A DNA stretch of 64,000 nucleotides, taken from positions 64,001 through 128,000 of IMG/VR virus record IMGVR_UViG_3300045988_168162; one strand, 5' to 3'. The notes beneath the pieces are model-generated. The model did not search any database. It was not told where the DNA came from and saw only the letters and a list, made by a program, of their open reading frames with translations. This DNA is from a virus. Positions within the stretch are counted from its first letter, which is position 1. The number at the start of each line of letters is the position of its first letter. This document shows, in pieces, positions 52,359 to 52,792 of this stretch. Position numbers and translations under genes: made by a program.

Positions 52359-52387
52359 TTGACAATACTTGAATTTGATTTTATAAT
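52359..52387 (+). promoter_or_regulatory. consensus promoter for the antisense RNA
   Basis: TTGACA, 17 nt spacer, TATAAT. Confidence 0.6.
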
Positions 52388-52394
52388 AATAATA

Positions 52395-52505
52395 GAGCTA
52401 AGGAGCCGAGACATAGACGGCCACCTCAGTTCGATATGTACATAATGGCTATACCATCATAGCACAAGACCGTTCTGGTTGCGACAGGGCGGTCTTACTT
52501 TTTAT
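52395..52505 (+). ncRNA. candidate antitoxin sRNA (about 110 nt) convergent with the toxin mRNA
   Basis: Starts after the consensus promoter and ends at AGACCG..CGGTCT plus a T-run; overlaps the toxin ORF 3' end by about 50 nt. Confidence 0.5.
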
Positions 52506-52599
52506 CACGAAAAAACGCGATAACGGCTATGATAGTTCCAATGCCGGAGAAAAGACAACCAAGGATAGAAGTCCAATCAGAGACAGAAAGATCTTTCAT
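52456..52599 (-). CDS. type I toxin-like small hydrophobic peptide (47 aa)
   Basis: AGGAGGTG SD 7 nt upstream; MKDLSVSDWTSILGCLFSGIGTIIAVIAFFRDKKVRPPCRNQNGLVL; found by hand. Confidence 0.55.
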
Positions 52600-52763
52600 T
52601 GCACATCACCTCCTGATAAATAAATTTACCGGAAGGCAAAAGTAGTGCTGGCTCCACATTTACCTTACTGGTATATGGGAGATGACCGCCTATACGTCTA
52701 TGGAGGACGGGAATGATCGATGAAGTTCCCAGGTTCGACGCTCGGCTCCTTAACTCTGTTATT

Positions 52764-52792
52764 ATTATAGTATCTATGTAAAATATTGTCAA
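52764..52792 (-). promoter_or_regulatory. consensus promoter for the toxin mRNA (long 5' UTR)
   Basis: On the minus strand: TTGACA, 17 nt spacer, TATAAT; about 155 nt leader. Confidence 0.6.

Follow-up and report, generated by a model that had tools for sequence, protein, structure and literature searches.

What is encoded, and to what end, where two perfect promoters point at each other across the gene of a predicted single-helix membrane peptide within a phage tail module? The locus in question lies in a 64,000-nucleotide (nt) stretch of viral DNA (positions 64,001 to 128,000 of IMG/VR record IMGVR_UViG_3300045988_168162; hereafter the window, whose first letter is position 1), inside a 540-nt unit that near-identical phages either carry or lack. 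Taking together the elements read from the sequence, their retention in two lineages and the presence or absence of the whole cassette, all of which are directly observed, we conclude with moderate confidence that the cassette is a swappable type I toxin–antitoxin-like module of the Gram-positive '3′-overlap' design, situated in a tail-gene hot spot (all Gram-positive type I pairs are described as convergent, the two RNAs overlapping at the 3′ ends; PMC4147584).

A single predicted peptide gene between convergent promoters

The two promoters are as perfect and as inward-facing as a first-pass annotation of this DNA had described them (Table 1), and such sites are rare: three perfect TTGACA-17-TATAAT sites occur in the 64-kb window, against 0.03 expected from shuffles. 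A diverged copy of the whole unit is present in the relative L018 and in seven metagenome contigs, which represent lineage B (that is, phages whose protein corresponding to the 382-amino-acid (aa) product of the right-hand neighbour gene is 54–56% identical, and among which the state of the slot varies). Depending on the segment, lineage B differs at 12–31% of positions, yet it keeps both −35 hexamers, the −10 hexamer of the plus-strand promoter, the Shine–Dalgarno (SD) sequence 7 nt before the ATG, both transcribed 5′ boxes, the anti-SD motifs, the terminator, and the hydrophobic core and RDKK tail of the peptide, while divergence is seen in the promoter spacers and in parts of the leader. 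The minus-strand −35 hexamer is kept in all variants, and the −10 hexamer reads TACAAT in four variants of lineage B.

Between the promoters, the minus-strand open reading frame (ORF) 52599–52495 is the only one with a start signal. It encodes 34 aa and not the 47 aa originally proposed; an in-frame TGA lies three codons 5′ of the ATG, and neither strand holds a 47-aa ORF. The other features ascribed to it in that description (a strong SD, a single hydrophobic helix and a basic tail) were borne out: the SD is conserved in 14 variants, one of them with CGGGAGGTG in place of CAGGAGGTG, and the peptide has one hydrophobic stretch (residues 9–30, mean Kyte–Doolittle hydropathy 1.99, with a range of 1.99–2.40 over both lineages) followed by RDKK. 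What is kept in two lineages is, as for type I toxins, the gene of a small (<60 aa) hydrophobic peptide with a ribosome-binding site. In the assembly collection, 293 blocks contain the identical peptide, every time in this context. Among the 12 variants of its 90% cluster the changes are mostly conservative (I/V, L/I, D/E, D/N and K/E), with two less so (W/L and T/N), and the lineage B peptide, MYNFSVSDWISIIGCLFSVIGTVIGIVALFRDKK, is 68% identical, its 34 codons being free of insertions and deletions. In our reading of the sequences, small residues (G14, S18, G21 and A/G25) lie on one helix face in both peptides, which suggests helix–helix packing. One copy in which no gene had been called (L055) was considered as a case of a broken toxin gene and rejected, its ORF being intact.

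The annotation could not name the peptide, and neither can we. A Pfam search of the window peptide gave no family even at E ≤ 10, hence no match to Fst_toxin or Ldr_toxin; a PDB sequence search with both peptide variants gave nothing significant; and, against 50,697 phage records, blastn found no match for the locus or its 12-kb neighbourhood and tblastn found nothing for the peptide at E ≤ 10. In a scan of 51800–53000 against Rfam, the best match (E = 1.4) reached 23 bits where the cut-off is 59 and was driven by the terminator. The peptide thus appears to represent a new, unnamed family, with no detectable homologue outside its own phage group.

A predicted antisense RNA that would meet the peptide mRNA at its 3′ end

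The plus-strand promoter and terminator delimit a predicted small RNA (sRNA) of ~112 nt without a plausible ORF, in agreement with the ~110 nt first suggested; the 5′ untranslated region (UTR) of the peptide messenger RNA (mRNA), at ~158 nt, likewise comes close to the earlier figure of ~155 nt. The predicted fold of the sRNA (−37 kcal/mol, z = −4.5) consists of a 5′ hairpin with the shared box as its 5′ arm, an open single-stranded linker and an intrinsic terminator, and this layout and the consensus structure are kept in nine variants (RNAalifold). Identity between the lineages is highest in the segment comprising the sRNA and mRNA 3′ UTR (88%), followed by the ORF (84%), the leader (74%) and the sRNA promoter (69%), and the linker is nearly invariant. 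The linker also contains a 10-nt palindrome (TATGTACATA, 52435–52444), which could allow the sRNA to dimerize and which could pair with the toxin start region (AUAUGUACAA) in lineage B, not in the lineage of the window.

A single hairpin, with a U-tract on the plus strand only, separates the two genes. The terminator had been placed inside the toxin coding region with ~50 nt of coding overlap, which proved incorrect: the stem lies past the stop codon, with which it shares 2 nt, in the 3′ UTR of the peptide mRNA, and the final three codons are reached by the T-run alone (52495–52505, 11 nt). The predicted overlap of the two RNAs as a whole would be ~40 nt if the mRNA ends at the shared hairpin, and ~112 nt if it is read through.

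Both promoters are enclosed in a 53-nt inverted repeat (52358–52410 and 52741–52793, 83% matched) that extends from the −35 hexamer to about +17 of each predicted transcript. Within it, the promoter spacers differ, and the hexamers and the transcribed box AGAG(C/T)TAAGGAGCCGAG are conserved. As a result of this arrangement both predicted RNAs start A-G-A-G-(C/T)-TAAGGAGCCGAG; the shared 23-nt start reported earlier stands as a 21/23 match, although transcription probably starts only after its first ~6 nt. In the sRNA box GAGCTAAGGAGCCGA is invariant across all variants, in the mRNA box a G/A polymorphism (AAGGAG or AAGAAG) segregates within lineage A, the lineage of the window, and in lineage B both boxes are kept as GAG(C/T)TAAGGAGCCGA. 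We know of no precedent for identical 5′ boxes on a toxin mRNA and its antitoxin RNA. One idea is that the UAAGGAG near the 5′ end of both RNAs could act as an SD-like stabilizer of the STAB-SD type (PMC4113751), which would be compatible with the panhandle discussed below.

A scan of viral contigs for the 15-nt box returned 38 stretches. Of these, 35 come from outside this phage group, and none of the 35 is related or preceded by a promoter; they correspond to coding sequence, true ribosome-binding sites and reverse complements of the 5′ ends of transfer RNA (tRNA) genes. Several of these matches arise because some tRNA genes start with 15 nt (acceptor stem and D-stem) that are the reverse complement of the box, TCGGCTCCTTAGCTC, for example at L091 2151–2165 (apparent UCU (Arg) anticodon) and at L072 1639–1653. 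The window itself yielded no tRNA genes, and the likeness is probably a coincidence.

The minus-strand RNA with its leader folds better than shuffled sequences (z −3.4). The leader is 74% identical between the lineages with 12 gap columns, and its pyrimidine-rich anti-SD motifs are conserved, including a U-to-C change in the proximal motif that turns a G-U pair into G-C. In four variants the SD is predicted to be paired (P ~1.0), through either the proximal or the distal anti-SD. Should the mRNA be read through beyond the shared hairpin, a hairpin complementary to the 5′ hairpin of the sRNA comes next, with AUUAUUAUUAU after it; in this longer RNA the 5′ box is predicted to pair with the RNA's own 3′ end in a terminal helix of ~22 bp (P 0.93–1.0 in three variants).

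Table 1. Coordinates of the cassette, its elements and its neighbours in the window
Feature	Position	Strand	Remarks
Whole optional cassette, 540 nt	52320–52859		From the slots of L019 and L021 compared with the window
sRNA promoter	52359–52387	+	TTGACA-17-TATAAT, 12/12 match
sRNA 5′ box	52394–52410	+	AGAGCTAAGGAGCCGAG; contains SD-like UAAGGAG
Predicted antitoxin-like sRNA, ~112 nt	52394–52505	+	Ends predicted from promoter and terminator
sRNA terminator hairpin	52466–52496	+	12-pair stem and ACTTTTTATC, T-run to ~52505; both lineages
Predicted membrane peptide (putative toxin) ORF	52495–52599	−	34 codons and stop; MKDLSVSDWTSILGCLFSGIGTIIAVIAFFRDKK
SD	52607–52614	−	AGGAGGTG, 7 nt 5′ of the ATG at 52599
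Structured 5′ UTR of peptide mRNA, ~158 nt	52600–52757	−	
Proximal anti-SD	52632–52638	−	UGCCUUC (lineage B: CCUCCC); SD pairing in predicted ensembles
Distal anti-SD	52678–52684	−	CAUCUCC; SD pairing in RNAalifold consensus, P = 0.95 in L003
Peptide mRNA 5′ box	52741–52757	−	AGAGTTAAGGAGCCGAG; kept in lineage B
Peptide mRNA promoter	52764–52792	−	TTGACA-17-TATAAT, 12/12 match
Terminator at right cassette edge	52810–52850	+	14-pair stem and T-run; 5′ of the 382-aa gene
87-aa gene	52056–52319		Left neighbour; downstream of the 1931-aa tape-measure-like gene
382-aa tail-region gene			Right neighbour; weak Ig/FN3 signals

An optional cassette in a slot shared with type III systems

Near-identical phages, L019 and L021 among them, have a 56-nt terminator-bearing spacer instead of 52320–52859, and the flanking proteins of these two are 97–100% identical to those of the window. 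As the spacer of the empty alleles replaces this interval entirely, the cassette includes the terminator at 52810–52850, which is homologous to the right-end slot terminator of lineage B cassettes and unlike that of the empty allele. The exact 87-aa neighbour protein is found in 626 blocks of the assembly collection, and 6 of the 10 distinct contexts listed for it are without the cassette, the 382-aa gene following 72 nt downstream; about half of otherwise identical phages are without the peptide gene. The first-pass annotation was therefore right to call the locus inserted and to place a terminator at its right edge. Its immediate flanks, however, are the 87-aa gene and the 382-aa tail-region gene, and it does not directly follow the tape-measure-like gene; the second terminator thought to insulate it, at 52004, is not adjacent, as the 87-aa gene lies between.

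Elsewhere in this phage group the same slot holds other cargo. In L016 (2222–2925) it carries a ToxN/AbiQ toxin gene (Pfam ToxN_toxin, 5.8e-43; PADLOC AbiQ, 1.3e-31), and in L015 (2258–2924) the gene of a 163-aa protein with a match to the CptIN toxin model (E 4e-15, short of the curated cut-off); three ~42-nt repeats lie upstream of it (found by repeat search, missed by Tandem Repeats Finder). Only deletion remnants of cassettes occupy the slot in L017 and L022–L032. The slot would thus be a hot spot for RNA-antitoxin cassettes, both type I-like and type III, and the toxin–antitoxin reading of the window cassette gains circumstantial support from it. L015 keeps the promoter, box and hairpin of the sRNA, identical to lineage B up to the position of the peptide stop codon, beyond which the CptIN-like cassette follows; its sRNA copy lacks the U-tract and has one disrupted pair in the stem. 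On the simplest reading, the toxin half was replaced recently and an antitoxin gene was left as an orphan.

Lineage B also contains an extra unit (L018 2760–2935), located between the toxin promoter and the right-hand terminator, with a promoter (TTGACATTTGGCGGCGTATCGCATATAAT), ~120 nt and a separate terminator. A nearly identical promoter precedes the CptIN-like (L015 2210–2240) and ToxN/AbiQ (L016 2222–2250) cassettes, and the extra unit may be a type III remnant or another small RNA gene.

Proposed mode of action

Assuming that the module works like its nearest anatomical counterparts, two host-type sigma-A promoters would fire convergently. Transcription of the minus strand would yield the mRNA of the 34-residue single-helix membrane peptide, in which the ribosome-binding site would form a helix with one of the two upstream anti-SDs, so that the primary transcript would be poorly translated. 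The plus strand would yield the ~112-nt sRNA, perfectly complementary to the mRNA 3′ UTR, with an overlap of at least the shared hairpin and the last three codons, and of the whole sRNA where the mRNA is read through. Pairing may then lead to cleavage or decay of the duplex, and perhaps to a tighter SD helix, as in txpA/RatA and bsrG/SR4. Once the supply of sRNA stops (for example, because the phage genome is lost or a competing phage shuts transcription off), the peptide would be made and would damage the membrane. Given that ToxN/AbiQ or CptIN-like systems occupy the same slot in sister phages, the likeliest role, by analogy, is exclusion of other phages or maintenance of the phage in its host.

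Should the prediction prove right, the pair would add a new toxin family to type I systems, from an abundant uncultured group of human-gut phages, and type I and type III RNA-antitoxin systems would be swapped at one slot within a single phage species. Such swapping would amount to a natural experiment on the benefit of the cassette (that is, exclusion of competitors versus maintenance in the host). The cassette would be of modest practical value, its small size and tight repression lending it to use as a kill-switch or for counter-selection in gut Firmicutes. What is new or unexplained is the hot spot shared with type III systems, the presence/absence polymorphism in one gut phage and the identical 5′ boxes.

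Comparison with known systems

The likeness to type I systems of Firmicutes that was first pointed out holds for the anatomy and fails for the mechanism of the Fst type. By anatomy, the nearest systems are txpA/RatA and bsrG/SR4 of Bacillus subtilis and the type I pairs of Clostridioides difficile prophages. The two B. subtilis toxins are, like the predicted cassette peptide, small single-helix proteins with a basic C-terminal tail, and the ribosome-binding site of bsrG lies in a stem, as predicted here. BsrG has 38 aa. The cassette differs from both pairs in that no sequence similarity was found, in that its guaranteed overlap is shorter unless the mRNA is read through, and in its identical 5′ boxes, which they do not have. 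Its peptide (34 aa) is also shorter than the 59-aa TxpA, yet both pairs share with it a 3′-end-only overlap and a phage-derived carrier (the skin element and the SPbeta prophage, respectively), and RatA and SR4 act by duplex-triggered decay, with or without tightening of an SD helix (PMC4147584).

In C. difficile, prophage toxins of 34–47 aa have AGGAGG 7–8 nt upstream and a hydrophobic region followed by a positively charged tail, and the convergent antisense RNAs have sigma-A promoters (PMC7699646). These pairs (CD0977.1/RCd11 and relatives), which, probably like the cassette, come from phages of a gut Firmicute, differ in that the window cassette sits inside a tail-gene block and alternates with type III systems; homology to CD0977.1-type toxins was not detectable in the tblastn search of the 50,697 phage genomes. 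The par system of Enterococcus pAD1 (Fst, RNA I/RNA II) also has convergent RNAs with one terminator hairpin outside the coding region, a toxin of ~33 aa and repeats at the 5′ ends of both RNAs (PMC4147584). In par, however, the repeats are direct in the DNA and hence complementary in the RNAs, where they block the ribosome-binding site, whereas those of the cassette are inverted, which makes the 5′ ends identical and unable to pair, so that an Fst/par mechanism does not apply. The shared terminator of par is bidirectional; the cassette has one hairpin between its two genes, with a U-tract on the plus strand only.

The 5′–3′ helix of the peptide mRNA would, conditional on read-through, be reminiscent of the fold-back (fbi–tac) of hok/sok from plasmid R1. 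Full-length hok mRNA is closed and inert. The antisense RNA of hok/sok overlaps the 5′ leader, that of the cassette would overlap the 3′ end, and there is no sequence relation. The type III systems ToxIN/AbiQ and CptIN, which share the slot in sister phages and likewise have an RNA antitoxin, comprise a ~160-aa endoribonuclease toxin and a same-strand repeat RNA, neither of which is present in the window cassette; they have roles in abortive infection (PMC4147584, PMC3401426).

Counter-evidence and alternative explanations

Several observations weigh against a type I-like module. No toxin family matches the peptide in Pfam, NCBIfam, PADLOC or PHROGs, and a phmmer search of 1.84 billion representatives returned only its own cluster and one spurious repeat protein. 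The ratio of nonsynonymous to synonymous polymorphism (pN/pS) in the ORF frame (0.60 pooled, 0.13–0.68 pairwise) is no better than in two other frames and does not single out the peptide frame, so that the evidence for coding comes from the SD and ATG, together with conservation of length and hydrophobicity of the product. Sequestration of the SD is equalled by 9% of shuffles and is therefore suggestive, and across 11 mRNA leaders and 9 sRNAs RNAalifold found one-sided consistent changes and no compensatory double change in any base pair. The 5′ boxes of the two predicted RNAs are identical, not complementary, and the trans complementarity of the sRNA to non-overlapping mRNA is within chance (−63.0 versus −55.8 ± 5.0 kcal/mol); as the leader and start region show no complementarity beyond chance, the sRNA would act through the 3′ overlap. 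How far that overlap extends depends on the 3′ end of the mRNA, because the minus strand has no U-tract after the shared hairpin. In L015 the sRNA gene (promoter, box and hairpin) is kept and the peptide gene lost. Finally, for a role in addiction the phage would have to persist (as a lysogen or a plasmid), a state of which its tyrosine recombinase is the only hint, and despite this recombinase no copy was found in 185,579 species-representative genomes.

A bolder form of the module reading, which we consider unlikely, is a new type I design in which the two promoter–leader units are inverted copies of each other and serve as a phage exclusion weapon. Under this design, the shared UAAGGAG box could stabilize each RNA at its 5′ end, the complement of the partner box together with the A/T-rich −10 region would be the far terminator of the mRNA, and the mRNA would close into a 5′–3′ panhandle that is inert until processed; the module would be interchangeable with type III systems at one tail-gene hot spot, and an orphan sRNA of the L015 type would give immunity to a relative's toxin. 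Equally doubtful in our view is that the peptide is a non-toxic accessory ('moron') membrane protein (for superinfection exclusion, or as a holin- or antiholin-like helper of lysis timing) whose level or timing the sRNA only tunes, the pair then being neither an addiction nor an abortive-infection module. Small single-helix phage membrane proteins with exclusion roles do exist, and an own promoter, a flanking terminator and an orientation opposite to the late genes are the layout of a moron. One database copy is labelled 'MAG TPA: holin', and weak holin matches were obtained (PHROG 1350, E = 0.14; Pfam Phage_holin_2_3, E = 0.61, the latter with the lineage B peptide). These matches are not significant and the holin label is unsupported; the gene is antisense to the late genes, its absence from about half of the otherwise identical phages means that it is not their essential holin, and no lysis gene adjoins it in the window. 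The peptide may nonetheless act on the membrane as holins do. A consensus antisense promoter and a (predicted) sequestered SD are, moreover, hallmarks of tightly repressed toxins, and the alternative cargo of the slot consists of toxin–antitoxin systems.

It is less probable still that the sRNA is the primary element, a regulatory RNA with targets elsewhere, next to which the peptide gene lies by chance as cargo. Such a role would fit the state of L015, the position of the sRNA as the most conserved segment and the near-invariance of its single-stranded linker, yet the phages with an empty slot have no sRNA either, no target-like complement above chance was found elsewhere in the window, the L015 copy with its lost U-tract and stem mismatch resembles a recent remnant, and the homology break exactly at the peptide stop codon suggests replacement of a toxin half. 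It is highly improbable that the unit is a miniature inverted-repeat mobile element in decay, or arose by chance, and has no expressed products. Although the 53-nt terminal inverted repeats bound a 436-bp segment, there is no target-site duplication at the ends, all copies found occupy one genomic slot, and the boundaries of the insertion or deletion (52320–52859) lie outside the repeats; conservation within the repeats is that of hexamers and transcribed box with diverged spacers, and both lineages retain the ORF, SD and terminator. A type I toxin–antitoxin-like module remains the reading that we favour.

The phage and the surroundings of the locus

The window is part of a large tailed phage, for which terminase, portal and tail proteins were identified, including two tape-measure-like proteins of 1363 and 1931 aa. 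The portal is ~40% identical to portals of 120–168 kb siphophages (of Bacillus, Brevibacillus and Alicyclobacillus), and related contigs of 138–154 kb come from human-gut samples; the phage is a large (~140–150 kb) human-gut siphophage, probably with a Firmicute host, the host group being suggested by the consensus sigma-A promoters and AGGAGG sites. As the species-representative genomes contained no copy, either by the leader pattern or by the 87-aa neighbour protein, we name no host. A tyrosine recombinase of the Phage_integrase family (298 aa, 5008–5904) hints at a temperate or plasmid-like lifestyle, and a TnpB-type transposase gene (OrfB_IS605 and Cas12f1-like TNB domains) is found at 13290–14399.

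The third perfect promoter of the window (43774–43802, with the palindromic spacer TTCAATTGAA) drives the gene of a 110-aa HTH_3/XRE-type regulator (43845–44177; Pfam 7.8e-06). It is followed by an apparent hairpin and T-run (~44198–44232, read by eye from the sequence) and then by three minus-strand genes without a family match (44387–46060). Lying between the two tape-measure-like genes, this region (43774–46060) has the look of a further accessory island within the tail module.

In relatives, a plus-strand gene for a DUF6273 protein of 2270–2277 aa follows a 176-aa gene. The minus-strand ORFs of the window at 58017–63596, which have no family match, are probably shadows of this gene, whose ORF in the window (57400–64000) would extend beyond the window end. 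The larger tape-measure-like protein (46123–51918) also varies among near-identical phages, with lengths of 1728, 1743, 1756, 1868, 1905, 1911, 1931, 2073 and 2150 aa, a spread that suggests polymorphism in repeat number or tail length.

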